Made by a program: the position numbers and the translations under genes. A stretch of DNA of 64,000 nt from Alphaproteobacteria bacterium (lineage in GTDB: Bacteria > Pseudomonadota > Alphaproteobacteria > Rs-D84), in NCBI GenBank assembly GCA_031549365.1, contig JAVBPX010000001.1:96001-160000 (forward strand), in the 5' to 3' direction. Of the stretch, positions 11,672 through 62,206 are shown piece after piece. The notes below the pieces were generated by a model that saw only the letters and a program-made list of their open reading frames with translations, searched no databases and was not told where the DNA came from. Positions within the stretch are counted from its first letter, which is position 1. Each line of letters begins with the position of its first letter.

Positions 11672-13471
11672 TTACCCTAGCGCGTCTTTGTGAAAAAATC
11701 TATATATTTTTTCAGCCGTTGATTTTGAAATACCATCAACCTTGGTCAAATTTTCGATTGAAGCGTCAATTATCCCGTTAACACTGCCGAAATATGCCAA
11801 TAATGCTTTTTTGCGCGTGCCGCCAATCCCCTCGATTGCGTCCAGCGCGGACCCAACCGCAGATTTTGCCCGTTGTTTTCGGTGAAATGATATTGCGAAT
11901 CGATGTGCTTCATCACGAACCGCACCCATTAAATTAAACAACTTGGTGTCCTTTTCAATTTTAACCTCTGACCCATCTGGCATTATGAAATGTTCATCGC
12001 CGGATCGAACCACACCCTTGACCACGCCCAATGTTGGAATATCCAAGCCAATTTCATTTTGAACCGATTTTGCAACATTCCATTGTGCGCGACCACCGTC
12101 AACAATAATTAAGCTCGGGATTGTTCCTTGTACTTCCGCTTTGGAATAACGTCGTAATAAAAATTCATGCATCATGCCGATGTCATTGCCGGCCATGGCT
12201 AAATCCTCCAATTTAAAATGGCGATATTCTTTTTTGTTAAAACCGTCCGCGCCAAATACAATCATGGACCCAACAGGATGTTTTCCAAACAAATGCGAAT
12301 TATCAAAAACATCAACCCTATTAATTTCAATACCCAACCAATTTTTTAAATCATTAATTGGCTCATCCCATTTTTTTATATTGTTTACAGAAAACCTCCG
12401 CGAGGATAACATTTGTTGTTCAATTTGATCGATTGCCCCCTTGTCTGATCCGTGCGCCATATTAATGTTAATTTTTCGTCCAAATTTTTCACGTAAAACT
12501 TTGGCCACATTTTCAGATATTTGAATTGATGTAACAATATTGATGTTATCTGTACAATCATTGTAAAACCATAATATGCTGGATTCCAGAATTTCCGAAT
12601 TTGTCATATCATCCGTGTGTTTTGGATAAATTGTTTGTGCGGAAATAATTTGACCATTGCGTTGCCTAGTAATCCCAACAATTGGTTGCGCCCCATCAAA
12701 CACACCAACAAAATAATCAACATTTCGGGTATCATGCTTGCCTTGTTTCACAGTTGTTGATATGGCTTGGATTTGATCTCTGAAACGCGTTGCGCTTTCG
12801 TAATCCATTTTATTTGATGCCGCCGCCATCTTAACTGATAATTCGCGAATCAAATCATCCGATTTCCCGGATAATACAGAACGTGCAAATTCAACATTTT
12901 TAATATATTCACCATGCGAAATTTTATCGCAACATGGACCAGAACACCGACCAATTTGATACAACAGACATGGCCTCACACGGTTTTTAAACATAGCATT
13001 GGAACAAGTCCGTAATAAACAAACCCTCTGAATTAACTTGACTGTTTCATTTAATGCGCCAACTGATGGGTACGGCCCAAACACATCACGTTTTGCTGTA
13101 ATTTTTCCACGAAATTTAATCAAGCGCGGAAAATTATCATCACTGATGTTCATCAATGGATACATTTTATCATCAGTTAATAAAATATTATATTTTGGGG
13201 CCCTATTTTTTATCAAATCAGATTCTAATATCAAAGCCTCGGTCTCGGTCTTGGTTGTTAAAATATCAACCTTATCAATCTGCAAAACCATTTGCCCAAT
13301 ACGTGCCGACACCTTGGATAAATCAGTATACTGATTTAAACGCTTTTTTAAATTCTTGGCCTTGCCTACATATAACAGTTTTGATTCATGATCAAACATC
13401 TGATAAACCCCTGGGGTTTCCGGGGCATTTTCGATTAAAATTTTTAATTTTTCTACTTTCATTATTTGCAA
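11672..13471 (-). CDS. uvrC: excinuclease ABC subunit C
   Basis: GIY-YIG (PGVYQM, LYVGKAKNL), Cys cluster, DNSH, DGG, RDEAHRFA, HhH. Confidence 0.96.
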   Translation of the reverse strand: MQIMKVEKLKILIENAPETPGVYQMFDHESKLLYVGKAKNLKKRLNQYTDLSKVSARIGQMVLQIDKVDILTTKTETEALILESDLIKNRAPKYNILLTDDKMYPLMNISDDNFPRLIKFRGKITAKRDVFGPYPSVGALNETVKLIQRVCLLRTCSNAMFKNRVRPCLLYQIGRCSGPCCDKISHGEYIKNVEFARSVLSGKSDDLIRELSVKMAAASNKMDYESATRFRDQIQAISTTVKQGKHDTRNVDYFVGVFDGAQPIVGITRQRNGQIISAQTIYPKHTDDMTNSEILESSILWFYNDCTDNINIVTSIQISENVAKVLREKFGRKININMAHGSDKGAIDQIEQQMLSSRRFSVNNIKKWDEPINDLKNWLGIEINRVDVFDNSHLFGKHPVGSMIVFGADGFNKKEYRHFKLEDLAMAGNDIGMMHEFLLRRYSKAEVQGTIPSLIIVDGGRAQWNVAKSVQNEIGLDIPTLGVVKGVVRSGDEHFIMPDGSEVKIEKDTKLFNLMGAVRDEAHRFAISFHRKQRAKSAVGSALDAIEGIGGTRKKALLAYFGSVNGIIDASIENLTKVDGISKSTAEKIYRFFHKDALG

Positions 13472-13529
13472 ACACCACTATTTTATGATATAATAGCGTC
13501 GCAAACATAAAAAAACAAGGGAGTGTTTC

Positions 13530-14006
13530 ATGTTAATTAAAAAATCCGAATCTGGACGTTCCATGATTGAAATGTTGGGTGTTTTGGCAATTATGGGCGT
13601 TTTGACTATCGGCGCCATCCAATTGGTATCATACGCCATGGCGACCCAGAAAAAAGGCACGGTTGAAACCGAAATTGTCCAAATATACCAAGGCGTTCGC
13701 AATATTTTCAGCGCAGCCGAAGATTATTCTGCCCTGGATAACGGCGTATTCGGAGCAATGGGTATTTCACAAAAAAATCCGTATGGCGGAACATATTCTG
13801 TATCGGCTGATGTTTCCAATCCACGCCAATTCACGGTTCATATTAATGGATTGCCAAAATCGGATTGCGAATACTTTAAACTGAAACGCTGGACAGAATC
13901 TGTTGAATATATCAACAGCAACGGCCAACGTGGCGGCGCCGTTGCAACCCCAGCGGATTGCTCGGACCGTGCTGGAAATAATACAGTATCAATTACTTAT
14001 TTCTAA
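13530..14006 (+). CDS. type IV pilin-like protein
   Basis: Class III signal ESG|RSMIEMLGVLAIMGVL; C-terminal NPYGG...INGLPKSDC like PilS-type pilins. Confidence 0.85.
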   Translation: MLIKKSESGRSMIEMLGVLAIMGVLTIGAIQLVSYAMATQKKGTVETEIVQIYQGVRNIFSAAEDYSALDNGVFGAMGISQKNPYGGTYSVSADVSNPRQFTVHINGLPKSDCEYFKLKRWTESVEYINSNGQRGGAVATPADCSDRAGNNTVSITYF

Positions 14007-14024
14007 ACCACGAAAATCAAACTT

Positions 14025-14047
14025 GGGGCCGATTGGCCCCTTTTTTT
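14025..14047 (+). terminator. intrinsic terminator
   Basis: GGGGCC-GATT-GGCCCC followed by a T run. Confidence 0.8.
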
Positions 14048-14132
14048 AATTGCCTTTTTATGTTGCCCAGGCTTTTATTCTTGACAAAACATTTATTTAA
14101 TATACAATTACCGTAACCAAAAGGCATAAACC

Positions 14133-14795
14133 ATGATTAAACCAGATTGCTTTGATTGTCCGATATCGCCGGGATGCCTGCCATCAACCGCAATGATTTG
14201 CGATGATAAACTGAAAAAAATAATGTTTTCTAACCACGGGGAAAATTGGCTTTGGCTGGTATTGTATCCGCAATTGTCATTTTTAATTTTATCCGCAGAG
14301 ATCACAATGAACCCTCGAATTTTGGGCAATACAGAAACAACCAAAGGCAATCCATATAATCATATCCAAAATTTCATCAAATCATTGGAATTGATGAAAA
14401 ATCAATTTTCATTTATGTCGGCAACATCAGACTTAATAACATATTATGAACTGATTTTAAAATCAACACGGAACAATAAATTATTGCGCGACGATTTTGA
14501 ATATATGGAATTATGCGGACATTATACTGGGAAATGGTCCCAACCCGACAATATAAAAAATATGCACTATGTTACTATAAATAAAATCTTGTTGGATCTA
14601 TCATCCAGTTTCAGCCGTCCTACAAAATTCACCGTGGATAAAAAAACGTACGATCGCCCTGCTTTGTCTGCAAATGACATTAAAAACTTTGAACTTTTTA
14701 CGCAAATCACATCTGAAAGATTTCGTGAATTATCCGAAAACTTTCAAAAAGCATCCATCGGCATATATGACTTTGACGACGACCAAGGGAGATAG
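14133..14795 (+). CDS. hypothetical protein, paralogue 1 of 3
   Basis: TTGACA-17-TACAAT promoter upstream; shares AExxMNP and NxHY motifs with the next two ORFs. Confidence 0.75.
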   Translation: MIKPDCFDCPISPGCLPSTAMICDDKLKKIMFSNHGENWLWLVLYPQLSFLILSAEITMNPRILGNTETTKGNPYNHIQNFIKSLELMKNQFSFMSATSDLITYYELILKSTRNNKLLRDDFEYMELCGHYTGKWSQPDNIKNMHYVTINKILLDLSSSFSRPTKFTVDKKTYDRPALSANDIKNFELFTQITSERFRELSENFQKASIGIYDFDDDQGR

Positions 14796-14806
14796 AGGAC
14801 AAAAAA

Positions 14807-15373
14807 ATGCAAACAAAAACAATTGCAACAAATTTTCCATATCCTTGTTCGGACGAAATGAAAAATGCTATGGAACAATTTCCAAAATCTCTCTATTGGA
14901 CCGAAAGCGTATTTCATTTCATATACGAAAATATTAAATTCGCAGAACTGACAATGAACCCAAAATATATTCATTCAAATAATTCTGATCCAACTCTTCG
15001 ATTCCGCGCATATTATACAAATGTGATGGACGTTATGCGCAGCCTGAATTTAATCCACTATATGGAATTCCCCGAAGTTAAAAATCATTACGATAAAATT
15101 TTGAACGCACTGCGTCCTCGGATTGAAATTGATGACATATTGGATTTATTTGAATTCTGTCGATACGATTTGGCCACATGTACCCCAACCCGAAACAATA
15201 TCCACTATGTTGCTATTATGAAAGTACTCCGTGAATGGAAAGACTCTGCAAACGGCAAACCATCTGTCATTATTGAAAAAATTGGACCAACCGCATCTGG
15301 CATTGCCTATAATAATTTCATAGATTTCACTAATGCTACAATCAAACACGTGCGCAATGAAAAATTAAAATGA
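14807..15373 (+). CDS. hypothetical protein, paralogue 2 of 3
   Basis: RBS GAGG; FAELTMNP, DILDLFE..YDL, NIHY. Confidence 0.75.
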   Translation: MQTKTIATNFPYPCSDEMKNAMEQFPKSLYWTESVFHFIYENIKFAELTMNPKYIHSNNSDPTLRFRAYYTNVMDVMRSLNLIHYMEFPEVKNHYDKILNALRPRIEIDDILDLFEFCRYDLATCTPTRNNIHYVAIMKVLREWKDSANGKPSVIIEKIGPTASGIAYNNFIDFTNATIKHVRNEKLK

Positions 15374-15942
15374 TGTACGAAGATATAATTCATATTGATT
15401 TATACACCGAACTACCCTGTCCAATGCGAGGATGGTGCCACGGACAAAATCAAGATATTATTAATTTTTTTAAAAAACATAAATTTTCACACAACGATTA
15501 TAAAAAAATCCATGCGATTTATAATCATATAATGTGTGCAGAATATTGGCTGGCGCCGCATTTGGTTCATAAAAAATTTCAAGATCCGGTACGCCGATAT
15601 CATTATTACCGGGATTCTGTCATGTCCATAATTAAACAAACAACGGACATTTGGGATGCTCCGTTCCCAGAATTAAATAAACATTATAAATCATTTATTA
15701 AAAACAAATATAACGGCTGTATATATGATTTGGATATTTTGGATTTACTAGAACAAAATTACTATGATTTAAAAACATTGTCCCCTTCATTACAAAACAT
15801 TCATTATCAAATAGCTAGTTCGATAATAGAATTGGCAAAACAAGAAACAAAATTTTCGGCCTCGCAAATTGCACTGCCATCACTGTTATTACAATTTAAA
15901 AATATATTAATCTCAAATATTAAACGCGACAAATTCAAATAA
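15370..15942 (+). CDS. hypothetical protein, paralogue 3 of 3
   Basis: ATGA overlap; CAEYWLAP, DILDLLE..YDL, NIHY. Confidence 0.75.
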   Translation: MMYEDIIHIDLYTELPCPMRGWCHGQNQDIINFFKKHKFSHNDYKKIHAIYNHIMCAEYWLAPHLVHKKFQDPVRRYHYYRDSVMSIIKQTTDIWDAPFPELNKHYKSFIKNKYNGCIYDLDILDLLEQNYYDLKTLSPSLQNIHYQIASSIIELAKQETKFSASQIALPSLLLQFKNILISNIKRDKFK

Positions 15943-15944
15943 TA

Positions 15945-16904
15945 TTATTTATACCGATTATTTGATGACATCACATCAACATTTTTATTCTTGTATAATT
16001 CAACCATTTTATCACGAGCAACAGACAAATAAGTACGCGGATCAAATACATCTGGTTGTTCGGATAATACTTTCCTTATCCCTGCTGTAAAAGCCAACCT
16101 GGAATCAGAATCAACATTTATTTTGCAAATATTTTTTTGAACAGCCAAACGCAATTCAGATTCTGGCACACCATGGGCATTAATTAATCTTCCGCCAAAT
16201 TTATTAATTTCATCAATCAAATATTCCGGCACGGACGAAGCTCCGTGTAATACCAGCGGAAAATTCGGTAATTTTTTTGCAATCTCATCCAAAATATCCA
16301 AACGCAGTTTCGCATTTTCATTTTTAAATTTATACGCCCCATGCGATGTCCCGATTGATATAGCCAAACTGTCGACACCCGTTAATTCTACAAATTTAAC
16401 AACATCATCCGGGTTTGTATACATTGATTTATCGGATTCAATATCTTCCTCTATTCCGCCCAATATTCCCAATTCGCCTTCAACTGAAACATCAAATTTT
16501 TTTGCATATTCAACAACGCGCTTTGTTAATGCAATATTTTCATCAAATGGTAAATCGGAACCATCAATCATAACTGATGAAAAGCCAGAATCAATGGCGT
16601 CAACACATGATTCAAAACTGTTGCCATGATCCAAATGTAGTGCTATCGGGAAACGCCCGCCCATTTCACGCGCATATTCGGTCGCGCCCATCGCCAAATG
16701 TTTTAATAATGTTGATCCCATATACTTTCTAGCGCCCCGGGAAACCTGTAAAATCACGGGGGAACCTGTTTCCGCGCATGCTAAAATTATTGCCTGTAAT
16801 TGTTCCAAATTATTGAAATTGTACGCCGGCACAGCATATTTATTATCATATGCATGTCTAAACATTTCGCGTGTATTTACCAAACCCAAATCTTGATATT
16901 TCAT
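15945..16904 (-). CDS. fba: class II fructose-1,6-bisphosphate aldolase
   Basis: HLDHG, SVMIDGS, VEGELG, GTSHGAYK, VLHGAS, KINVD. Confidence 0.95.
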   Translation of the reverse strand: MKYQDLGLVNTREMFRHAYDNKYAVPAYNFNNLEQLQAIILACAETGSPVILQVSRGARKYMGSTLLKHLAMGATEYAREMGGRFPIALHLDHGNSFESCVDAIDSGFSSVMIDGSDLPFDENIALTKRVVEYAKKFDVSVEGELGILGGIEEDIESDKSMYTNPDDVVKFVELTGVDSLAISIGTSHGAYKFKNENAKLRLDILDEIAKKLPNFPLVLHGASSVPEYLIDEINKFGGRLINAHGVPESELRLAVQKNICKINVDSDSRLAFTAGIRKVLSEQPDVFDPRTYLSVARDKMVELYKNKNVDVMSSNNRYK

Positions 16905-17007
16905 TAGCTCACCTTTGTAGTTGCATTATAGCATAAAAAGACGTGGATTCGAAAATAAATTGAAATACGTCCCTCAAATTACGAGTCCAATAATTTTGTT
17001 AAAAAAT

Positions 17008-17039
17008 CATCCGGGAAAATCAACGATTTCCTCCGGATG
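17008..17039. repeat. intergenic palindrome family B
   Basis: CATCCGGGAAAATCAACGATTTCCTCCGGATG; near-identical copy at 45483-45514. Confidence 0.8.
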
Positions 17040-17075
17040 CAGTAACAGAATATTAAATAATACAAAGAATAAAAT

Positions 17076-19055
17076 TTACACAAATACGTCTTTTACAAAT
17101 TTGGCATGTTCTGTAATAAATTTGAAACGGAACTCTGGTTTTTTCCCCATTAATTCAGCAACTAAAACCCGGGTTTTTTCGGCATCTTCTGCCCCCTCTT
17201 CGGTTTTTTCGGGCAATTCAACACGAATTAAACGACGTGTCCGCGGATCCATTGTCGTTTCTTTTAATTGGTTCGCCATCATTTCACCCAATCCTTTGAA
17301 TCGTGAAATTTCGACTTTTTTATTTTTTAATTTTCCGTTTAATAACTCATCCAATTCTTCGTCGGACGCAACATAAATACTTTCGGTTCCAACCGTTACC
17401 TTGAACAAAGGCGGGCAAGACAAATATAAATGCCCGTTTTGGATTAATCCCGGCATTTGTTGATAGAAAAATGTCATCAACAACGAAGCAATGTGCGATC
17501 CGTCAACGTCAGCGTCGGTCATAATAATTACTTTTTCATAGCGTAATTTTTCATCATCATAATTGCGTAGAGAGCCTGCTCCCAAAGCTTCAATTAAATC
17601 ATTCAATTCTTTGTTTGCTTCGAACTTTTCATTTGAATGCGTCGCAACATTTAAAATTTTTCCGCGCAATGGTAAAATCGCTTGGGTTTCTCTGGAACGC
17701 GCTTGTTTAGCCGTACCGCCCGCGGAATCGCCTTCGACTATGAATAATTCAGTGCCGATCACACCATGCTTTGAACAGTCTGCCAATTTACCCGGTAAAC
17801 GCACGCGCTTGGTCGGAGTTTTACGCGCAACATCTTTGACTTTTTTTGTTTTAATACGCGCATCGGACAACATAATAATGAAATCCAATAACGCATTCGC
17901 AGTCTTTGGATCTGATGCCAAAAATAAATCGAACGGATCCTTCATCGCATTTTCAACATAACGTGCAATTTCTGGATTTGATAATTTTTCCTTGGTCTGC
18001 CCTAAAAATTGTGGGGTTTTATAAAATACAGATAACAAAACAGTCGCAGAATCTAAAACATCCTCGGCCACGATTTGATTGGCGTGTTTATTGCTAATTT
18101 TTTCGCCATAATTTTTTAATCCCTTGACCAATGCAGAACGTAATCCCGATTCATGCGTTCCACCATCAATTGTTGAAATGGTATTGCAATACGAATTGAA
18201 AAATCCATCGTCTGACGCTGCCCCATTTTCATCCGTCAACCAAGATACCGCCCATTCTACATGCCCTAAATCATCTGGGAATTCGACGGACCCTGCAAAA
18301 ATTTTTGGCGTAATTGTTTGTTTTTTTGAAACTACTTGGCTTAAAAAATCCTCGACTCCGTTTTTAAAAAAGAACGTGGCACGATCCGGAATATTCATAT
18401 CCTCGGTTATTAAATCTGGATTGCAAATCCATTCAATTTTAACACCACGTGTTAAAAAAGCTTTGGCGCGCGCCAATCTATATAATTTAACTGGTTTAAA
18501 TACAGCCGCATCACCAAAAATTTGCTCATCCAATGTGAAACGCACCGCAGTTCCATGCCCCTTGGTCGGCGCACCCTGACTAATTTTTGAAACTGTTTTC
18601 CCGCGTGAAAATGTTTGAGTCCATGAATACCCATCCTTGATAACTGTCACAGTCGTATCGGATGATAATGCATTAACAACAGCAGCACCAACACCGTGCA
18701 ATCCGCCGGATGTTTTGTAAACATTGTTGTTAAATTTTCCGCCCGAATGCAATGATGTAAATATAATTTCCAGCGCGGATTTATCTGGGAACTTTGGATG
18801 CGGATCAATCGGAATACCACGACCATTGTCTGAAATTTCAACAGTTTTAGCATCAATTAATTTAAATGTGATTGTATCTGCGAATCCTGCCACAGCCTCG
18901 TCCACGGCATTGTCCAAAATTTCGACCGGCAAATGGTGCCAAGCTTTTTCATCAGTGCCGCCGATATACATTCCCGGGCGCAACCGAACAGGTTCCAGCC
19001 CTTCCAATACTTGAATGTCTGACGCAGAATAAGAATTATTAATTTTTTCACTCAT
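17076..19055 (-). CDS. parE: DNA topoisomerase IV subunit B
   Basis: LEGLEPVRLRPGMYIG, VEGDSAGG, LPLRGKILN, MTDADVDG, RFKGLGEM; 659 aa without the GyrB insert. Confidence 0.93.
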   Translation of the reverse strand: MSEKINNSYSASDIQVLEGLEPVRLRPGMYIGGTDEKAWHHLPVEILDNAVDEAVAGFADTITFKLIDAKTVEISDNGRGIPIDPHPKFPDKSALEIIFTSLHSGGKFNNNVYKTSGGLHGVGAAVVNALSSDTTVTVIKDGYSWTQTFSRGKTVSKISQGAPTKGHGTAVRFTLDEQIFGDAAVFKPVKLYRLARAKAFLTRGVKIEWICNPDLITEDMNIPDRATFFFKNGVEDFLSQVVSKKQTITPKIFAGSVEFPDDLGHVEWAVSWLTDENGAASDDGFFNSYCNTISTIDGGTHESGLRSALVKGLKNYGEKISNKHANQIVAEDVLDSATVLLSVFYKTPQFLGQTKEKLSNPEIARYVENAMKDPFDLFLASDPKTANALLDFIIMLSDARIKTKKVKDVARKTPTKRVRLPGKLADCSKHGVIGTELFIVEGDSAGGTAKQARSRETQAILPLRGKILNVATHSNEKFEANKELNDLIEALGAGSLRNYDDEKLRYEKVIIMTDADVDGSHIASLLMTFFYQQMPGLIQNGHLYLSCPPLFKVTVGTESIYVASDEELDELLNGKLKNKKVEISRFKGLGEMMANQLKETTMDPRTRRLIRVELPEKTEEGAEDAEKTRVLVAELMGKKPEFRFKFITEHAKFVKDVFV

Positions 19056-54387: not shown

Positions 54388-55980
54388 ATGTCGGATAACA
54401 ATGCCATTCATTGGGCGGATTTTATTGCAGAGCGAATAATTCGTGAAAAAGGCGATAAAGATTTATATACTTTGGCCAGCGGAATTACCCCGTCTGGGAC
54501 AATTCATATTGGAAAATTTCGCGAGATTATAACCACCGAATTGGTGTCCCGGGCGTTGGTTCGCATGGGGAAAAAGGTACGTTTTATTTATTCTTGGGAT
54601 GATTATGATACTTTTCGCAAAGTGCCGGGCGATATGCCACAGCAAGAGATGTTAAAAGAATTATTGTATCAGCCGATTGTCGATATTCCAGATGTTTACG
54701 GAACAGAAAGTTCTTATGCTCGGCATAACGAAGTGTCGTTGGAACGTATTGCTCCGGTATTGGGCATAACAAATATTGAATTTATTTATCAAAGTCGGAT
54801 GTATCGTAGTGGCGAATATAATGATTTGATTATAAAGGTTATGGATTCGCGAGATAAAATTCGTGATATTTTACAGACATCTAAAAGCCAGGGGATGGAT
54901 GAAGAGTTTTATCCTATTGCAACTTATTGCAGCAATTGCAATCGTGACCGAATTGTTTTTTCAAATTATAATACATCAGATAAAACAGTTGATTATAAGT
55001 GTAAGTTATGCAACCACACGGAAAAGTTAAATTTACGCGATTCAAGGCGGCTGAAATTGCCTTGGCGAATTGATTGGCCAATGCGTTGGGCATTTGAAAA
55101 TGTTGATTTTGAACCAGGTGGGACAGATCATTCTTCGGCTGGGGGCAGTTTTGATACCAGCAAAGTAATCGTTAGTGAGATTTTTGGAGGGGCGTCTCCG
55201 GTTTATGCAAAATATGCATTTGTATTGCCAAAGGGTGAAAGCAAAAAGATGTCTTCGTCAATTGGTAACGGGTTTTCTGTGGAAAGCGTTTTGCAGGTTT
55301 ATGAACCAGAAATGATACGTTGGTTTTTTGCTTCGTATAAACCAGATGCGCAGTTCAGTATGGCTTTTGACATTGATGTTTTGAAGAATTACGAAGCATT
55401 TGACCGAATGGAACGCGTGGTTTATGGATTGGAAGATGTGAATGATGACAGGCGTGCAGTGCAGCGGCGTATTTATGAAATGTCTCAGATAAATTTTGAT
55501 GGAAAGATTCCGGAACAGATGCCTTTTCAGCCGAGTTTTAGGCACCTGTGTAATCAGTTGCAAATAAACGAATTTGATATCGAAAAAACCAGAGCATATT
55601 ACGCCCACCAAATCAAAAATGACATCGATGAACAACGGTATCAAGAAAGGTCCAAATGCGCAGTATTTTGGATACAAAATTGTGCTTCGGATGATTTCAA
55701 ACTTATATTGAATTCCGAAAAACGCAATGACATGACATTGTCGACAGATGAAAAAAAGTTCGTGAATGACTTGCACAAAATGTTGGAGATTGATTGGGAC
55801 AATTTAGATGACGAACGCGTCTTACAAAGTAAGGTCGGTGAATTAATTAAGGCCAACGGATTGGAAGTACTAAATGCGTATAAACTGTTATATCAGTTAC
55901 TGGTCAATCGGGACCAAGGACCAAAGCTGGCCGGATTTATTTTGGGTATTGGCAAGGATAAGATTCTGAATTTGTTGTAA
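54388..55980 (+). CDS. lysS: class I lysine--tRNA ligase (spirochaete-like)
   Basis: HWAD, ASGITPSGTIHIG, SWDDYD..RKVP, KLPWRIDWPMRW, KMSSS, GPKLAGFI. Confidence 0.93.
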   Translation: MSDNNAIHWADFIAERIIREKGDKDLYTLASGITPSGTIHIGKFREIITTELVSRALVRMGKKVRFIYSWDDYDTFRKVPGDMPQQEMLKELLYQPIVDIPDVYGTESSYARHNEVSLERIAPVLGITNIEFIYQSRMYRSGEYNDLIIKVMDSRDKIRDILQTSKSQGMDEEFYPIATYCSNCNRDRIVFSNYNTSDKTVDYKCKLCNHTEKLNLRDSRRLKLPWRIDWPMRWAFENVDFEPGGTDHSSAGGSFDTSKVIVSEIFGGASPVYAKYAFVLPKGESKKMSSSIGNGFSVESVLQVYEPEMIRWFFASYKPDAQFSMAFDIDVLKNYEAFDRMERVVYGLEDVNDDRRAVQRRIYEMSQINFDGKIPEQMPFQPSFRHLCNQLQINEFDIEKTRAYYAHQIKNDIDEQRYQERSKCAVFWIQNCASDDFKLILNSEKRNDMTLSTDEKKFVNDLHKMLEIDWDNLDDERVLQSKVGELIKANGLEVLNAYKLLYQLLVNRDQGPKLAGFILGIGKDKILNLL

Positions 55981-55984
55981 TTCA

Positions 55985-56749
55985 TTACCTTTCTTGTATG
56001 TGCTTTCCCATAATGCACTGGCGAGCGATGATTTTTTTGATGTTACTGCCGACAAGTTGCGATGTTAGAGGGCAATGATAGCTTTTTTTGAAATTTTCAG
56101 TGCATTGTTGTAAAGTTTCTGTAAAATTTGGTTTATAAAATTTTCCAATTTCTATACCCACAGGGGTGTTTTCAAGATTTCCCTTTGCTATTTCGTTATC
56201 AAAATTTTGTTTTGTAGTCGCAATTATATGTTTATTATCAGTGGTATGCAAGTGTGGTTCAGCCCTCTCCCATTGCGGTTGTGTAGATACAAATTTATCG
56301 GCCTCTTGCTTGTATGTTGAGTGTAATAGTGGACTATCTTTTAGTATTATTTTAGGTAAGTGCAACACCCATAAAATAATTCGAGCATATTGAAATTGCG
56401 ATAATATGCAATCAGTTAATACGCATGAAGAACTCATAATTGACGGTAGAGAATCTTTAATGTTATTTGCAATGTATATGAGATCTGAAAGGCATTCTTT
56501 GTCTAGGCAAAATCCAAGGTGGTCAAAATCCTTTTGAAGGTCGTAATGCAGTTTCTTCATGTATTCAAGAAATTTTTTTTCTTGTTCGTGGTTGGATTTT
56601 TTTAGTAATATAAAAGTGTCAACATCTGAATTTGTTTTATCTTCACCTCGAGCAGTTGAGCCACATATAAATGAAAACTCTAGATTGTCTCCGAATATCT
56701 CTCGGGTATCTAAGTCCAATTGTTTTATCTGTTTTTTTGTTATTTTCAT
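55985..56749 (-). CDS. Pol-beta-superfamily nucleotidyltransferase-domain protein
   Basis: FICGSTARGEDKTNSDVDTFI (hGS...DxD). Confidence 0.8.
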   Translation of the reverse strand: MKITKKQIKQLDLDTREIFGDNLEFSFICGSTARGEDKTNSDVDTFILLKKSNHEQEKKFLEYMKKLHYDLQKDFDHLGFCLDKECLSDLIYIANNIKDSLPSIMSSSCVLTDCILSQFQYARIILWVLHLPKIILKDSPLLHSTYKQEADKFVSTQPQWERAEPHLHTTDNKHIIATTKQNFDNEIAKGNLENTPVGIEIGKFYKPNFTETLQQCTENFKKSYHCPLTSQLVGSNIKKIIARQCIMGKHIQER

Positions 56750-56771: not shown

Positions 56772-58229
56772 TTATAAGTATCTTACGATTTCTCTCTGAG
56801 GTAGAATTGGTTGTGGAGTAAATATGCCTTTGTAATAGATTCCAGATGCATGCTTTCCTATACCGCCATATGGTTTGTATCCATGCTCGAAATTGTGTAG
56901 ATGGTCATTCACAAGTATAGAGTCCGGCATATGGATTTTTTCATCATAAAGTATGGCTATTGTTTCTTCTTTTAATTTTCCATAAACTGTCAAAAACATA
57001 GCTGATTCTTTATATTTTGTATTTTTGAAATAGTTTATAAGTTCATTTTCTGAATCATAAGGTTGTATAAAGAATATTGGACAGAACAATTCTTCGTAAT
57101 TAGCTCCTTCAGAGAGATCCTTTACTATTACCGTAGGATATATCATATTTTTTGAAGCGTCTATAAGACCTCCATAATAAATATTCTTCCGATTGTTATA
57201 AATTAGTTTTGCAGCATTTAATGCGTATCCATCTTTTGTATTAGGCATTATTATCGTGGATTTTTCAGGATTTGAATTACAGTTTTCATGAATTTCTTTT
57301 AATTTATTTATTAAAATTTCTTGAAAATCTGTTAAACAATCTCTTTTCACAAGTAATGCATTTGGGGCGGCACAGTCTTGTCCTTGGTTGTATGTTCCAA
57401 GCTCGATACATGCTTCGACGGCTTCTTTGATATTTGACCGAAGATTTATTATAACCGGGTTTTGTCCAGCACCACCAAAGAAACAATATAACTCTTTGTT
57501 ATACGATCTTTTTACTTTCTTCATGTTTTCATATGTACCTGTAAATATAAATGCCTTTATTTCATTTCGTGTAATATTGAGAAAATCCTCTCTTCCTCCA
57601 TAGAATATTTCTATATTTGGCATACTTGATAAATTTAACAATTTATCTAGCTCTTTAAAAACGTCTTGAGAATCATTTGGATATCTAACATATACTTTCT
57701 TACAAATATACGATGGAACAAGAGCAAAACAAACAAAGGAATACAGCAATTGGTTTAAAGGCATAAATGACGCGATTGGTGCTTTCTCTTTTAAAAAGTA
57801 TTCCTTATTTATGGTAAGATTTGTAAGAAGGTCTATTGATCTATCAATTTCATCACATATTGTATTATAGGTGGCATATGATGAAAGAGCTTTATAGATA
57901 TCTTCTCTGCGCTGATTTAATTGAAACGAAAAATTGAGCGCGTCTGTTAAAATTTTATCAAAGTCTAGATTATTTTCCACGTCTTTTTTAGAAATATTTG
58001 TTCTTTGTCCAAACCAAGAGCCAATTTCCTTTTTACTGAGTTTCTCTGTTTTTACTATAAGCCCTAAGTCATTTTTTTCATACTCCAGGCTGAGATTGTT
58101 AATATTGTGGAGTATATTATCTTTAGCTTTTGTATCCATCTCATCAAATTTGAGGATAAAAGTCAGCCCATTTTTATCTTGTAAAATGGTTCCAATAGGC
58201 TGTTTCTTTTTCCTTACTATGAAGTCCAT
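56772..58229 (-). CDS. aldehyde dehydrogenase-fold protein (atypical)
   Basis: PLNQ, FTGT, GGAGQNP, NQGQDC (catalytic Cys), EELFCP, PYGG; RBS AAGGAG. Confidence 0.85.
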   Translation of the reverse strand: MDFIVRKKKQPIGTILQDKNGLTFILKFDEMDTKAKDNILHNINNLSLEYEKNDLGLIVKTEKLSKKEIGSWFGQRTNISKKDVENNLDFDKILTDALNFSFQLNQRREDIYKALSSYATYNTICDEIDRSIDLLTNLTINKEYFLKEKAPIASFMPLNQLLYSFVCFALVPSYICKKVYVRYPNDSQDVFKELDKLLNLSSMPNIEIFYGGREDFLNITRNEIKAFIFTGTYENMKKVKRSYNKELYCFFGGAGQNPVIINLRSNIKEAVEACIELGTYNQGQDCAAPNALLVKRDCLTDFQEILINKLKEIHENCNSNPEKSTIIMPNTKDGYALNAAKLIYNNRKNIYYGGLIDASKNMIYPTVIVKDLSEGANYEELFCPIFFIQPYDSENELINYFKNTKYKESAMFLTVYGKLKEETIAILYDEKIHMPDSILVNDHLHNFEHGYKPYGGIGKHASGIYYKGIFTPQPILPQREIVRYL

Positions 58230-58260
58230 ATTTTCTCCTTGATTAATGTGGACCTTAAGT

Positions 58261-59760
58261 TTATCTCAACTTTATTTTTTTTAACATGGGAAATGTTAAA
58301 ACATCTCTGATATTAGATGAGTTTGTTAACATCATGGCGAGGCGATCTGCACCTATTCCCATGCCTCCTGTAGGGGGCATACCGTATTCTAAAGCTGTAA
58401 GAAAGGCTTCATCCATTTGCATTGCTTCAGGATCATCTGAAAGAGATGCTTGTTCTTCGAATTTTTTTCTTTGATCTATTGGATTTGATAATTCTGAGTA
58501 AGCTTCACCAAATTCAATGCCGCCAACATAGAGCATAAATCTTTCAGAAAGACGTGGGTTTTGTCGATGTATTTTTGTCAGCGGAGATATATCATATGGA
58601 ACATCCATTACGAAAGTTGGTTGAATAAGAGTTTTTTCGACTTTTTCTTCAAATATAGTTTCTACTACTTTACCCCAAGATTCAGTTCCCTTGAGTCGAA
58701 TTTTGTGTTTTTGGGCAATGCTATGAATTTCCCTATCGCTCATGTTTATAAGATCTTCGTTCAGCGCTTCTGATGCTGCGTCTACCATTGGTAATCTTTT
58801 AAATGGTTTTTCAAGGTCTATTAAGGCATCTTTCCAAGTAATGTGGAGAGAGCTGTTGACAGCCATAGATGAATCTCGCAGCAATCTTTCTGCGAGAATC
58901 ATCATGTCAAAATAGTCTTTATAAGAGCCATATATATCTAGCATTGTGAATTCTGGACTGTGGCGATTATCAATACCTTCATTGCGGAAATTTTTACCAA
59001 TTTCAAACACTCGAGGAATGCCTCCAACAATGAGCCGCTTTAGTTCAAGTTCAGATGCTATCCTGAGATAAAAATCGTCTTTAAGAGAATTATAATGTGT
59101 AGTAAATGGAGCAGCATTTGCACCGGCTTTTACTGGGTGAAGTATAGGTGTTTCTACCTCTATATATCCCTCATCGTGCATTACTTCGCGTATAGCATAC
59201 ATTGCTTTCGCCCTATTGAGAACAACATCCCGAGAGTTTTTGTTTACTATAAGATCTACGGATTTATTGCGGTATCTTTCTTCGGAGTCTGTTAGACCGT
59301 GGTATTTTTCAGGAAGAATATTCAATGATTTTGACAGCATTGTTACTTCCAGAGGAGTAACAGAAACTGCTCCTCGCAAAGTTTTTTTAATTCCTCCCAA
59401 AACACCAATTATATCACCAATGTCAAGATTTTTAAGCATGTTATTAAATTGTGTATCTGCTTTTGGATTTTCATTGCAAATTTGAATTTTTCCGGATTCA
59501 TCTTCAACATCGATGAACATTCCGGAATTTCGGATTGCCATAATTCTTCCTGCAATTTTTACAATGTCTTTTGTATCCGCTGTCTTTTCACCAGGTTGAA
59601 GGTGGCCAAATTCAGCTATTATATTACTGGCAAGATGCGTTGGTTTGTATATGTGTGGATATGCGTTTATTCCTTGAGATTCGATGTCTTTAAGTTTTTG
59701 AATCCTTATTTCTTTTAAAGAATTTATTGGTGTCTTATTATCTTTTTTTTGATTTTGCAT
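58261..59760 (-). CDS. lysS: class II lysine--tRNA ligase paralogue (full length, with OB-fold)
   Basis: AGRIMAIR, LPEKYHGL, EVETP, YLRIASEL, FRNEG..HSPEF, YGMPPTGGMGIGADRL. Confidence 0.92.
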   Translation of the reverse strand: MQNQKKDNKTPINSLKEIRIQKLKDIESQGINAYPHIYKPTHLASNIIAEFGHLQPGEKTADTKDIVKIAGRIMAIRNSGMFIDVEDESGKIQICNENPKADTQFNNMLKNLDIGDIIGVLGGIKKTLRGAVSVTPLEVTMLSKSLNILPEKYHGLTDSEERYRNKSVDLIVNKNSRDVVLNRAKAMYAIREVMHDEGYIEVETPILHPVKAGANAAPFTTHYNSLKDDFYLRIASELELKRLIVGGIPRVFEIGKNFRNEGIDNRHSPEFTMLDIYGSYKDYFDMMILAERLLRDSSMAVNSSLHITWKDALIDLEKPFKRLPMVDAASEALNEDLINMSDREIHSIAQKHKIRLKGTESWGKVVETIFEEKVEKTLIQPTFVMDVPYDISPLTKIHRQNPRLSERFMLYVGGIEFGEAYSELSNPIDQRKKFEEQASLSDDPEAMQMDEAFLTALEYGMPPTGGMGIGADRLAMMLTNSSNIRDVLTFPMLKKIKLR

Positions 59761-59782
59761 AGATATACCTTTTTATACTTTT

Positions 59783-59855
59783 TGGGGGGCGGTCCGGATT
59801 TGAACCGTACCTCTGAGGGAAAACTCAGCGTTCTGCCTAATTATACTACCCGCCC
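59783..59855 (-). tRNA. non-canonical tRNA-like gene (73 nt including CCA)
   Basis: GGGCGGGTAGTATAATTAGGCAGAACGCTGAGTTTTCCCTCAGAGGTACGGTTCAAATCCGGACCGCCCCCCA: acceptor GGGCGG/CCGCCC, D-loop GG, CTGAG/CTCAG arm with 6-nt loop, GGTTCAAATCC, CCA. Confidence 0.8.
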
Positions 59856-59938
59856 TATAATTGTGATGAAGTGATCCCATCAACTTATCATTGTTTATGT
59901 CAAAAGCAATTTAAATGTCAATAATTATTTTTTGTTAT

Positions 59939-61051
59939 TTATTTGTTATTTAATATAATTAATGGCACTTGCATTTCGGATGCTGTCCCGCCTGCATGTT
60001 CAGATGCTGGTGAGCCAAACTCTTCCCAAGCTTTTTGATTTTGATGCAATGATTTGTTTCCTATTCCAATTGCGACATAGTCCCCGATTGATTCATCTTC
60101 CAGCACTCTATTCTTGGCAGAATACCAGTGAAGGTAGTTTGTTTTAAAAGTTTCCTTATTGATCAGCAAAAAATCTTTCTCCGAAAATATTTCATAAAAT
60201 ATTCTTTCAAAGCTATTTTTAGCCTCTGGTTTTACGAAAAATTGTGTACAACGCGCCTCACATGAAATCGGCATTATCAGAGTGTCAGCAATACCCGTAA
60301 AATCTTCGATAAATAAGGGCAAAGTATCAATATGACCGTGATCAGCAGTTATGATGAATAATGTATCTGGGCAATTATTTTGCAAATTTATTATTGCATC
60401 TCGTATATTGCAGATACAATTTCTGGCTTCGCCAGACAAAATTCCGTGATCATGGTTAGTGCTATCTGGCTCCGGCCAATACGCGTATATGTAATTTTTA
60501 TTGGCATTTTTTGTATTTGCTATTTTTTCAATAGTTGAACACCATTTCTCAACTGTATTATGCTCTGGTGTAATAAACTGAGGCATAACCTCAAAAGCGC
60601 TCCATTCGGAAATATCATTGATTTGGTCAACAAGTAATGCTGGCATTTTTTCCAACGGAGGCTTCGTAAGATGAGATGATTCACCACTATAAAAGTCACA
60701 ATTAGTAAAATTTTCGACAATCTCTCCAGATTCTTTATAATATTGCGACCATCCCAATAACCCATGTGATACAGGCAACAGCCCCGTGCGCAAAGTTGTT
60801 GTGGCGGCAACCGTAGTAGAAGGAACTATTGTATCAATAGTATCATATTTGTTTTTATAAAAATAGTCTGTCACAGAATCGCTTAATACATCCAGCTGTT
60901 CTGTCCCCATTCCGTCTAGGACTATAAGAGCTATGTTTTTGTACACTTCCGATGACCACGAATTTATGATCATTGGATGCGACTCATAATTTGGACATAG
61001 TCCAACAATTTTTTGTATTGCAGATGTTATTGATGTTATATCGTATTTCAT
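59939..61051 (-). CDS. alkaline-phosphatase-superfamily nucleotide pyrophosphatase/phosphodiesterase
   Basis: LIVLDGMG, PSTT, EPDSTNHDHG, ITADHG, EHAG; probable start MKYDI. Confidence 0.85.
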   Translation of the reverse strand: MKYDITSITSAIQKIVGLCPNYESHPMIINSWSSEVYKNIALIVLDGMGTEQLDVLSDSVTDYFYKNKYDTIDTIVPSTTVAATTTLRTGLLPVSHGLLGWSQYYKESGEIVENFTNCDFYSGESSHLTKPPLEKMPALLVDQINDISEWSAFEVMPQFITPEHNTVEKWCSTIEKIANTKNANKNYIYAYWPEPDSTNHDHGILSGEARNCICNIRDAIINLQNNCPDTLFIITADHGHIDTLPLFIEDFTGIADTLIMPISCEARCTQFFVKPEAKNSFERIFYEIFSEKDFLLINKETFKTNYLHWYSAKNRVLEDESIGDYVAIGIGNKSLHQNQKAWEEFGSPASEHAGGTASEMQVPLIILNNK

Positions 61052-61183
61052 GAGGTACATATTAGCAATGACATATCTTGAAGTCAACCGCGTATTTGGT
61101 TGAAAGTTGAGCGGAATTCTAGTTTCGTGGGAATATTGGTTGTTTTTATGTTTTGGTAATGAATTTTCATTGTTATTTAAAAT

Positions 61184-61437: not shown

Positions 61438-61714
61438 ATAATCGGTTGGATGTTGGTGGGGTGTTGGATTATTCGGGGAAATAATCGGGATAAGTGATTT
61501 ATGAGGTGTTTATCATGTTTAGTATGCTCTACACCAATAACATTTACACCTCCGCCAGAATTGGCCGTTTTATTTTTATCCGCGCGCGGCCCCGAAAACT
61601 CGCGGCTTTACTTTTTATTTTCACAGTGGTATGGTGATTTATATCAAAAATCTGCAGATTTGGTTCTCCTTACATACGATTACCATTTTTGCACTGTGAA
61701 CTTTGGGGGCTGTT

Positions 61715-62206
61715 ATGACCGCAACAATACATTTAGTACATGGTTTTATTGGGTTTGGAAAAACTACGATTGCGAAAAGATTGGCGCATGAATTGCCTAC
61801 GGTTATTCTGTCTGATGATGAATTTATGGTAAAATTATATGGCAATAATCCTCCTGCTGATTTATTTCGTGATTATTATAATCGTATAGATAATTTAATT
61901 TGGAATTTAGCAAAAGAGATTGTAAAAACTGGCGCAGATGTAATTATTGATTCCGGTTTTTGGAGTAAAGAAAGTCGTGCAACTGCATATAATCGCGCAA
62001 AAAATATTACAAAAAATGTAGTGTTTCACAACATTCAATGCAATATGGATATTGCCCGGCAACGAGCATTGGAACGGACAAAAATGAATTCCGGCGAATT
62101 GGCTGTGGATGAAAATACGTTTGATTTATTTAAAATTCAATTTCAACCAATTGATTCTGATGAAAATTATATAGTAATTAACCACGATAATAATATTAAA
62201 AAATGA
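61715..62206 (+). CDS. AAA_33-type P-loop kinase/ATPase
   Basis: GFIGFGKTT, LSDDE, IIDSGFW, R...R lid. Confidence 0.85.
   Translation: MTATIHLVHGFIGFGKTTIAKRLAHELPTVILSDDEFMVKLYGNNPPADLFRDYYNRIDNLIWNLAKEIVKTGADVIIDSGFWSKESRATAYNRAKNITKNVVFHNIQCNMDIARQRALERTKMNSGELAVDENTFDLFKIQFQPIDSDENYIVINHDNNIKK

Follow-up and report, generated by a model that had tools for sequence, protein, structure and literature searches.

Why would a bacterium with a genome of 0.91 Mb carry a third gene for lysyl-tRNA synthetase (LysRS), and one altered at the reaction centre? The question is raised by a 64,000-nucleotide window (the whole stretch of DNA analysed here, positions 96,001 to 160,000 of contig JAVBPX010000001.1 in assembly GCA_031549365.1) from an alphaproteobacterium of the Rs-D84 lineage, whose genome (G000; 15 contigs, 97.6% complete) encodes a variant class II LysRS, hereafter LysRS' (P0001). 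The stretch is matched without a single difference by a DNA contig from run X1, possibly its source. The reading that we favour, with a probability of roughly 45%, is that LysRS' is an accessory lysine enzyme with a rewired reaction centre, paired in G000 with a reductase-like enzyme from a LysRS-linked family.

As judged from its sequence, the open reading frame (ORF) encodes an intact accessory class II LysRS. The protein matches Pfam families tRNA-synt_2 (PF00152, 3.3e-81) and tRNA_anti-codon (PF01336, 1.9e-10), scores above the curated cut-offs of two lysS models (NF001756, 596.2 bits against 468; TIGR00499, 540.8 against 427.6) and is 40–44% identical over its full length to solved bacterial LysRS. 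It falls below the cut-offs of the LysX model NF002821 (517.5 versus 742) and of the EpmA models (209.6 versus 286.9) and, unlike the core-only EpmA/PoxA, possesses an OB fold. The class II motifs FRNEG and GxGxGxDR, which are invariant across an alignment of LysRS-II, are present (R259, E261 and R473), and 64 of the 67 positions conserved in at least 95% of 266 other LysRS-II are kept (66 in the three clade relatives). LysRS' is one of three intact LysRS genes in G000, the others being a canonical class II gene on contig C5 and a class I gene within the window (Table 1). The presumption, made from the letters alone, that LysRS' is a paralogue and not the housekeeping copy is thus correct: the C5 enzyme, with motifs EFTMMEAY, ELCNAYSEL and TGELT, is 48% identical to P0001. 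The 45 tRNA genes of G000 include normal tRNA(Lys) UUU and CUU.

To count substitutions, we used a MAFFT alignment of 270 LysRS-II, composed of the 120 nearest 90%-clusters, 149 representatives of 50%-clusters and the C5 copy, a set that samples the neighbourhood of P0001 and not LysRS-II at random. Residues are numbered after Escherichia coli LysU (1e1o_A) by ungapped ranges, in which P0001 position r corresponds to LysU r+3 over LysU 229–296 and to r+5 in the 414–428 strand; the human numbers are r+64 around 226–295 and r+78 around 391–430. For the OB fold, an explicit alignment to 4dpg_A, in 6chd numbering, equates human R136, F144, Q155 and E195 with R77, F82, Q93 and A131 of P0001.

The sequence-only reading had singled out the motifs EFTMLDIY, EFGEAYSEL, SELELK, KAGA and RGAVS as departures from EFTMMELY, EIGNGFSEL, PELYLK, PGGA and TGELS of LysU. 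All five are present in the P0001 ORF, and residue-by-residue alignment places them opposite the same LysU motifs; not all of the changes, however, proved unusual. Two are truly rare, E278D and N424E: column 278 holds Glu in 266 sequences and Asp in 4, and column 424 holds Asn in 247, Asp in 7, Glu in 4, Thr in 4, Pro in 3, Val in 2, and Lys, Gly and Ser in one each, with Asp at 278 and Glu at 424 restricted to P0001–P0004 (0 of the 266 other sequences in either case). Across protein clusters, Asp278 is kept in 26 of 26 members covering the region, and Glu424 in 30 of 30. By contrast, F426Y, G425A and the Arg and Lys variants are common, with Tyr in 149 and Phe in 114 sequences at position 426, Ala in 217 of 270 at 425, Arg before GELS in 157 of 270 and Lys at the proline position of PGGA in 61 of 270. 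The claim that ATP motifs 2 and 3 are intact stands for the motifs themselves but is incomplete, as it misses the Met that replaces E414 throughout the clade; this column holds Glu in 243, Gln in 12, Asp in 9 and Met in 4 sequences, the last being, again, P0001–P0004 only.

Positions 414 and 424 are not independent of each other. The pairs are E/N in 234 sequences, Q/N in 11, E/D in 7 and M/E in the variant clade, and all nine sequences with Asp at 414 have a residue other than Asn at 424 (Thr, Pro, Val or Gly). Four of these nine are proteins of 1070–1121 aa, and both of the two that were scanned are LysX over the curated cut-off, with the pair D/T. Given this covariation, 424 is not an independent 'lysine-specificity' residue, and E414M together with N424E reads as the probable shift of a carboxylate between two coupled positions, with the charge conserved. 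A second group of changes belongs to P0001 itself: the Glu of GELS (Glu in 258 sequences) is Ala in P0001 only, the Tyr of ELYLK (Tyr in 184) is Glu in P0001 only, the basic residue of A[KR]PF (Lys in 123, Arg in 119) is Ala in two sequences, and R166K is likewise private. The first Gly of GGA (Gly in 249, Ser in 16) is Ala in four sequences, including P0001.

What the changed residues do can be gauged from human LysRS. According to the available part of a preprint on the cryo-electron microscopy structure of human LysRS with tRNA (10.1101/2024.12.07.627298), the only source that a literature search for LysU/LysS active-site residues turned up, E339 and E301 bind the alpha-amino group of lysine, Y341 and Y499 sandwich its side chain, E501 binds the epsilon-amino group, and U35/U36 are read by R136, Q155 and E195, with F144. 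The side-chain and epsilon-amino contacts are kept in P0001 (Y277, Y421 and E423, corresponding to human Y341, Y499 and E501), as are E237 (human E301), G213 and the equivalents of LysU E240, G216, Y280, E421 and E428; the counterpart of E339 is the shorter Asp. Among the anticodon readers, R77, F82 and Q93 are kept, and the E195 equivalent is Ala131 in this copy only. We take LysU E414 to be a Mg ligand, and the role given to N424 is likewise assumed. The remodelling would accordingly affect the alpha-amino/Mg/adenylate corner and not the pocket that measures the side chain. Because the side-chain, epsilon-amino and ATP residues are kept, lysine is still the likely substrate, and P0001 most likely activates L-lysine; furthermore, since LysX carries D/T at 414/424, a residue other than Asn at 424 is compatible with a lysine enzyme. 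The altered substrate proposed in the sequence-only reading is therefore unsupported, as the side-chain contacts are kept, LysX tolerates non-Asn at 424, and no KamA-type lysine 2,3-aminomutase scores over the cut-off in the 97.6%-complete genome (best match 27.4 bits versus 199.2).

The variants form a lineage of their own. In a search of 5.8 billion clusters (7997 scored), the closest relatives of P0001 are P0002, P0003 and P0004, at 62, 61 and 59% identity, with the next at 52%; among 1.84 billion representatives of 50%-clusters, one cluster reaches 63% and the next 47%. The five variant rows of a 73-row tree make up one clade (Shimodaira–Hasegawa-like approximate likelihood-ratio test, SH-aLRT, 100; stem 0.25), nested in an 11-row clade (SH-aLRT 98) with LysRS of families f2 and f6, from the same order as G000. 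The canonical LysRS-II of G000 lies elsewhere in the tree, with its own family. Carriers are sporadic (1 of the 41 genomes around G000, 1 of the 61 around G041 and 2 of the 80 in the order of G041); the variant was found in three genomes, G000, G041 (locus L103) and G110, each of which also has a canonical LysRS-II, and one member of the P0002 cluster was seen on 51 contigs. Across about 40% divergence, the reaction-centre changes of the clade are invariant. LysRS' and the ALDH-like gene next to it have a G+C content at third codon positions (GC3) of 0.26 and 0.251, below the 5th percentile (0.286; mean 0.351) of G000 ORFs of at least 300 aa, whereas the class I LysRS (0.379) and the canonical class II LysRS (0.333) are typical of the genome. 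The lineage is, by all appearances, small and laterally moving, and it split off from the LysRS-II of related gut Alphaproteobacteria with tiny genomes. A scan of metagenome contigs with the clade alignment gave, among the matches listed, only housekeeping-type LysRS at up to 49% identity, the contig of P0003 not being among them, and a scan of viral contigs gave eight relatives at up to 47% identity and no sign of phage origin.

A lead to the function of LysRS' comes from the gene downstream, which encodes a LuxC-like member of the aldehyde dehydrogenase (ALDH) superfamily (P0270). Among proteins of 266–849 aa, P0270 has 75 relatives at E ≤1e-5, of which 53 carry a C-terminal extension of about 150–290 aa; when the 2590 ORFs of G000 were searched with a profile of this extension, one alone matched, at the C-terminal end of the class I LysRS (E 1.9e-6). 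All 18 long relatives (P0346–P0363; 32–39% identical to P0270) are fused to whole LysRS, 16 of class I and 2 of class II. In 13, a full-length or nearly full-length class I LysRS lies C-terminal to the ALDH-like domain, and three have an N-terminal class I catalytic part. Of the class II fusions, P0361 is intact and 43.6% identical to P0001 over 498 residues, and P0354 has a degenerate LysRS domain. By their record names, the fusions come from Xenorhabdus species, Aliiroseovarius and metagenome-assembled genomes of candidate phyla. All 94 family members have the catalytic Cys, and none has the hydrolytic Glu (its place is taken by Asn in 91, Ser in 2 and Gly in P0270); several members match Pfam LuxC, and the sources label many of them 'lysyl-tRNA synthetase class 1' or simply 'aldehyde dehydrogenase'. 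A search of the full-text literature found no papers on fusions of ALDH/LuxC-like enzymes with LysRS. Fusion to two structurally unrelated LysRS classes is strong evidence that the ALDH-like enzyme acts on the LysRS product, and this substrate may be Lys-tRNA, to judge by the putative tRNA-binding tail that most members carry. Prediction of a LysRS'–P0270 complex returned a score of 0.00 and no verdict, and speaks neither way.

A search of plasmids with P0270 returned distant homologues only, at no more than 29% identity. One of these (29%), on the Bacillus cereus-group megaplasmid pBMB171 (L195, 8998–19146), heads an operon with an adenylate-forming enzyme and a non-ribosomal peptide synthetase, which also holds a thiamine pyrophosphate enzyme, a ketosynthase-like protein and an exporter. 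This operon is suggestive for the ALDH superfamily, not for the family of P0270.

The favoured reading can be laid out as follows. The lineage is defined by three coupled changes in the reaction centre, of which E278D shortens the alpha-amino ligand, and E414M and N424E would move a carboxylate to the covarying position. LysRS' and the LuxC-like ALDH gene would have arrived in G000 together, as a two-enzyme unit; because the ALDH family is fused to LysRS of either class, we read the pair as an unfused lysine-activating and lysine-reducing unit. LysRS' would make Lys-AMP, or lysine attached to tRNA(Lys) or to a tRNA-like leader (see below), and the Cys enzyme would capture the activated lysine as a thioester and, with NAD(P)H as the reductant, convert it to the amino aldehyde, a chemistry proposed by analogy with LuxE/LuxC and glutamyl-tRNA reductase. 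The residue changes and their rarity, the lineage and its spread, and the fusions are shown by the sequences, whereas lysine as the substrate, its hand-over to the ALDH-like enzyme and the product are inferred. A bolder extension, which we advance tentatively, would make LysRS plus a Glu-less, Cys-bearing LuxC-like ALDH an undescribed 'lysine reductase' that yields lysine aldehyde or a derivative through adenylate or tRNA chemistry. It would be widespread in candidate-phyla bacteria and Xenorhabdus as fusions with class I LysRS or with the tRNA-binding tail, rarely with class II, and the window would hold the unfused class II version, in which a remodelled LysRS and a translation-incompetent tRNA-like carrier keep the lysine pool apart from protein synthesis.

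Several observations weigh against the favoured reading. P0361, the sole intact class II fusion, keeps the canonical E278 and N424. No member of the ALDH-like family was found in G041 or G110, and neither genome has a class I LysRS; the clade changes therefore cannot have arisen for this partner, unless it was lost twice. P0270 itself departs from its family at 15 of 87 conserved positions, among them Asn to Gly and His to Gln in FIxNGAGHNP, and its end branch is long (1.25 versus a median of 0.34), so that the LysRS'/ALDH operon could be decaying. The end branch of P0001 is long as well (0.46 versus 0.014–0.24 for its four clade-mates). In favour of the reading there is a hint of expression: RNA-library contigs of a single study, 100% identical to the window, cover 59705–59922 (the tRNA-like element and the start of the LysRS' gene), 59391–59707, 58243–58452 and 55653–56194, but their depth is low and carry-over of DNA is possible; stretches of the window uncovered in the RNA runs are no evidence of silence.

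On the minus strand, a phosphodiesterase gene is followed after 83 nt by the tRNA-like element, after a further 23 nt by the LysRS' gene, 31 nt later by the ALDH-like gene and then, after 22 nt, by a nucleotidyltransferase gene (Table 1). Matches of the ALDH-like protein and the nucleotidyltransferase in a protein atlas were to generic clusters only, and whether the phosphodiesterase-family gene belongs to the LysRS' unit is uncertain. The class I LysRS looks native, to judge by its relatives in genomes of the same family and by its GC3. Within 1.5 kb, only the gene itself is shared with G017, G012 and the f3 genomes. Across genomes G000–G040, all six f3 genomes as well as G012, G023 and G033 show a class I and no class II LysRS, and both classes occur only in G000 and G017. 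On the other side of the locus, a gene for an AAA_33/zeta-toxin-like kinase (61703–62206, plus strand) has the lowest GC3 of the neighbourhood, 0.22, and may be part of the same foreign stretch.

Table 1. Genes, RNA element and substituted codons of the LysRS' locus, in window coordinates.
Feature	Position	Strand	Remarks
Class I LysRS	54388..55980	+	convergent with the operon; 72% identical to its counterpart in G017 and 70% to that in G012, both genomes of the same family
Pol-beta-type nucleotidyltransferase gene	55985..56749	-	PF01909, 3.4e-7; PADLOC PDC-S09, 9.5e-10; 22 nt downstream of P0270
LuxC-like ALDH-superfamily gene (P0270, 485 aa)	56772..58229	-	31 nt downstream of LysRS'; Cys kept, general-base Glu absent
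Variant class II LysRS (LysRS', P0001, 499 aa)	58261..59760	-	OB-fold anticodon domain and class II core
Codon GAA, Glu419 (LysU N424, human N497)	58504..58506	-	alignment column; covaries with 409
Codon ATG, Met409 (LysU E414)	58534..58536	-	alignment column
Codon GAT, Asp275 (LysU E278, human E339; alpha-amino ligand)	58936..58938	-	Glu in 266/266 outside the clade
Codon GAA, Glu239 (Tyr of ELYLK in LysU, Y242)	59044..59046	-	Glu in 1/270, private
Codon GCT, Ala217 (K/R of GGAxA[KR]PF)	59110..59112	-	Ala in 2/270, near-private
Codon GCA, Ala131 (human E195; U35/U36 contact)	59368..59370	-	Ala in 1/270, private
tRNA-like element	59784..59856	-	22–23 nt upstream of the LysRS' start codon
Type I phosphodiesterase/nucleotide pyrophosphatase-family gene	59939..61087	-	PF01663, 1.5e-12; GC3 0.316; upstream of LysRS'

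The three variant loci have no neighbour in common. In G041, the genes before the variant encode a type III restriction enzyme and also a DrmD-like helicase; after it come a convergent S51 peptidase gene and a gene for a SLOG protein. In G110, the variant has ClpB on its upstream side and a NUDIX hydrolase directly downstream, beyond which stretches a defence-type island with DuOB, DUF488, a Schlafen-like helicase and AbiEii (L211, 10514–10963 on the plus strand and 12987–17763). A separate observation in G041 concerns a 409-aa protein resembling class II aminoacyl-tRNA synthetases (aaRS; tRNA-synt_2, 1.6e-15), encoded at L103 14926–16155 (plus strand), 3.4 kb from the variant LysRS, within a polysaccharide-type cluster of glycosyltransferase, nitroreductase-like, pyruvyl transferase, short HisG-like and SLOG genes.

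Among the other explanations, the resistance to a LysRS inhibitor that the sequence-only reading had considered remains a live rival, since the lineage is sporadic and always found alongside a canonical copy, but on balance an improbable one. LysRS' would then be a spare enzyme, insensitive to some natural analogue of lysine or mimic of the adenylate that occurs in gut communities, and kept beside the sensitive housekeeping copy. The co-residence of a canonical LysRS-II in all three genomes is as expected of such a spare, and so are the sporadic distribution, the outlying GC3 and the lateral spread, the position in accessory or defence islands with no constant neighbour, and changes that lie at the reaction centre and are held invariant across the divergence of the clade. 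In the available part of a paper on LysRS duplicates, it is argued that they may protect against backbone-substituted lysine analogues (PMC1475646). However, this setting has no known inhibitor, neither a producer gene cluster nor an immunity context turned up, and the tight operon with a LysRS-linked ALDH family in G000 is left unexplained; moreover, G000 already has a class I LysRS, which the same text, as far as available, treats as the less analogue-sensitive type (PMC1475646).

Somewhat more doubtful is the view of LysRS' as a redundant or decaying xenologue, in which the clade changes would be a neutral compensating swap and the private changes a mark of relaxed selection. Positions 414 and 424 covary elsewhere, including in LysX, and the swap appears balanced in that E to D plus N to E conserves the combined side-chain length, and E414M plus N424E the charge. 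The long end branch of P0001, the loss of its E195-equivalent anticodon contact, the aberrant ALDH-like neighbour and the degenerate look of the tRNA-like element all fit decay. A full-length ORF with 64 of 67 conserved positions does not, nor does a lineage that persists in three genomes or more and on numerous contigs (51 for the P0002-cluster member). The gene is covered by RNA-library contigs, and a 0.91-Mb genome would rarely retain useless genes.

The tRNA-like element bears on another possibility, which we consider unlikely, namely that LysRS' is a dedicated synthetase for this adjacent RNA, perhaps together with the class I LysRS, the lysylated RNA serving as a regulator or carrier outside translation. 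The element has UUU in its anticodon loop and an encoded CCA, it lies just upstream of the gene, and one RNA-library contig spans both the element and the start of the gene. P0001 alone has lost the OB-fold Glu that reads U35/U36, and the genes for the two LysRS classes lie no more than about 4 kb apart. A precedent is the tRNA(Other) of B. cereus, which is jointly charged by LysRS1 and LysRS2, as stated in the available part of PMC2916919. On the other hand, the element scores 28.6 bits with the Rfam tRNA model, short of the gathering threshold of 29; its anticodon loop, UUUUCC, has 6 nt, there are mismatches in the acceptor, D and T stems, and its minimum free energy fold is not a cloverleaf (z -1.67). 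The -10 box of a promoter-like site at 59867..59840 on the minus strand (ATCACA, a 16-nt spacer and TATAAT) falls within the D arm of the element; the RNA-library contig there reaches upstream to 59922, past this site. No such element was found before the variant gene in G041 or G110, and the upstream leaders in the three genomes are dissimilar to one another and hold no Rfam tRNA, T-box or riboswitch. The co-adaptation to an odd tRNA that the sequence-only reading had suggested is hence possible for this copy only, as both the Ala at the E195 equivalent and the element are absent from the other clade members.

Comparably slim odds attach to a signalling role. LysU makes Ap4A (diadenosine tetraphosphate), and LysRS' could be a LysU-like enzyme tuned for the synthesis of such dinucleoside polyphosphates in stress or defence islands, paired with nucleotide pyrophosphatases. 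The NUDIX hydrolase immediately after the variant and ClpB before it in G110, the type I phosphodiesterase/nucleotide pyrophosphatase upstream in G000, the SLOG-family protein two genes downstream in G041, the defence genes adjoining the variant in G041 and G110, and the fact that the changes touch the Mg/adenylate corner are all compatible with this idea; yet the neighbours come from three unrelated families, none of them common to the three loci, the NUDIX protein of G110 matches no Ap4A hydrolase model over the cut-off, and LysRS' itself matches no PADLOC model.

Finally, a changed amino-acid specificity (for beta-lysine, ornithine, a modified lysine or a D-isomer), as first proposed from the letters, appears very improbable: the alpha-amino ligand E278, assigned through human E339 in the available part of the preprint, is Asp in 0 of 266 other LysRS-II and a new carboxylate stands at 424, but the side-chain and epsilon-amino contacts are conserved, the EpmA models are not reached (209.6 versus 286.9), G000 has no KamA-type aminomutase over the cut-off, LysX tolerates D/T at 414/424, and, as two of the three hosts lack a special tRNA, any new amino acid would there be built into proteins wherever a lysine codon stands.

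The reading of LysRS' as an accessory lysine-activating enzyme with a reductase-like partner is of interest in several respects. Duplicate aaRS are a birthplace of new functions, including resistance, signalling, cell-wall and natural-product chemistry. In this lineage, a strictly conserved alpha-amino ligand and a conserved acidic residue are swapped in coordination, with the rest of the protein constrained, which amounts to a natural experiment on the rewiring of class II active sites. The ALDH neighbour is the more important lead, as it points to an unrecognised pathway of activated lysine; if the reading is true, glutamyl-tRNA reductase (GluTR) would be joined by a second reductase that depends on aminoacyl-tRNA or an adenylate, and a function would be gained for about 100 protein clusters now called plain 'aldehyde dehydrogenase' or misnamed 'lysyl-tRNA synthetase'.

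Compared with known systems, LysRS' shares its architecture and length with housekeeping LysRS-II such as E. coli LysS and LysU and the Geobacillus LysRS, but differs from them in the clade-wide E278D, E414M and N424E and in the P0001-only Ala at the E195 equivalent, Glu at Y242 and Ala in ARPF, as well as in being a third LysRS gene, of foreign composition, in an operon with non-translation genes. LysX, a LysRS-II joined to a lysylphosphatidylglycerol synthase, is a LysRS-II that provides activated lysine for a non-ribosomal use, as LysRS' may be, and it too departs from E/N at 414/424; unlike LysRS', LysX has retained E278 and carries an MprF-type membrane domain as a fusion, whereas the candidate partner in the window is a separate, soluble LuxC-like ALDH. 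From EpmA/PoxA, the beta-lysine ligase of elongation factor P, LysRS' is set apart by its score below the cut-off, its OB fold and the lack of an aminomutase partner over the cut-off. Drug-insensitive second copies of aaRS, such as the mupirocin-insensitive IleRS mentioned in the available part of PMC1475646, are likewise divergent, laterally spread and changed in the active site, and stand beside a canonical copy, but the variant LysRS lineage comes without a known inhibitor, producer or phenotype. B. cereus, with LysRS1, LysRS2 and tRNA(Other) (PMC2916919, in its available part), similarly combines both LysRS classes and a tRNA-like RNA in one genome; the element of G000 differs in being sub-threshold for a tRNA, unique to G000 and overlapped by a promoter-like box.

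The closest likeness in composition is to the ALDH/LuxC-like–LysRS fusions, which consist of the same two modules, joined in a single protein where the window has adjacent unfused genes. In the chemistry proposed, the likeness is to LuxE/LuxC and to GluTR, in which an activated acyl group passes to a catalytic Cys and is reduced to the aldehyde. The P0270 family matches Pfam LuxC and lacks the hydrolytic Glu, as would suit such a pathway; the GluTR fold is different, and the substrate here would be an amino acid activated by an aaRS.

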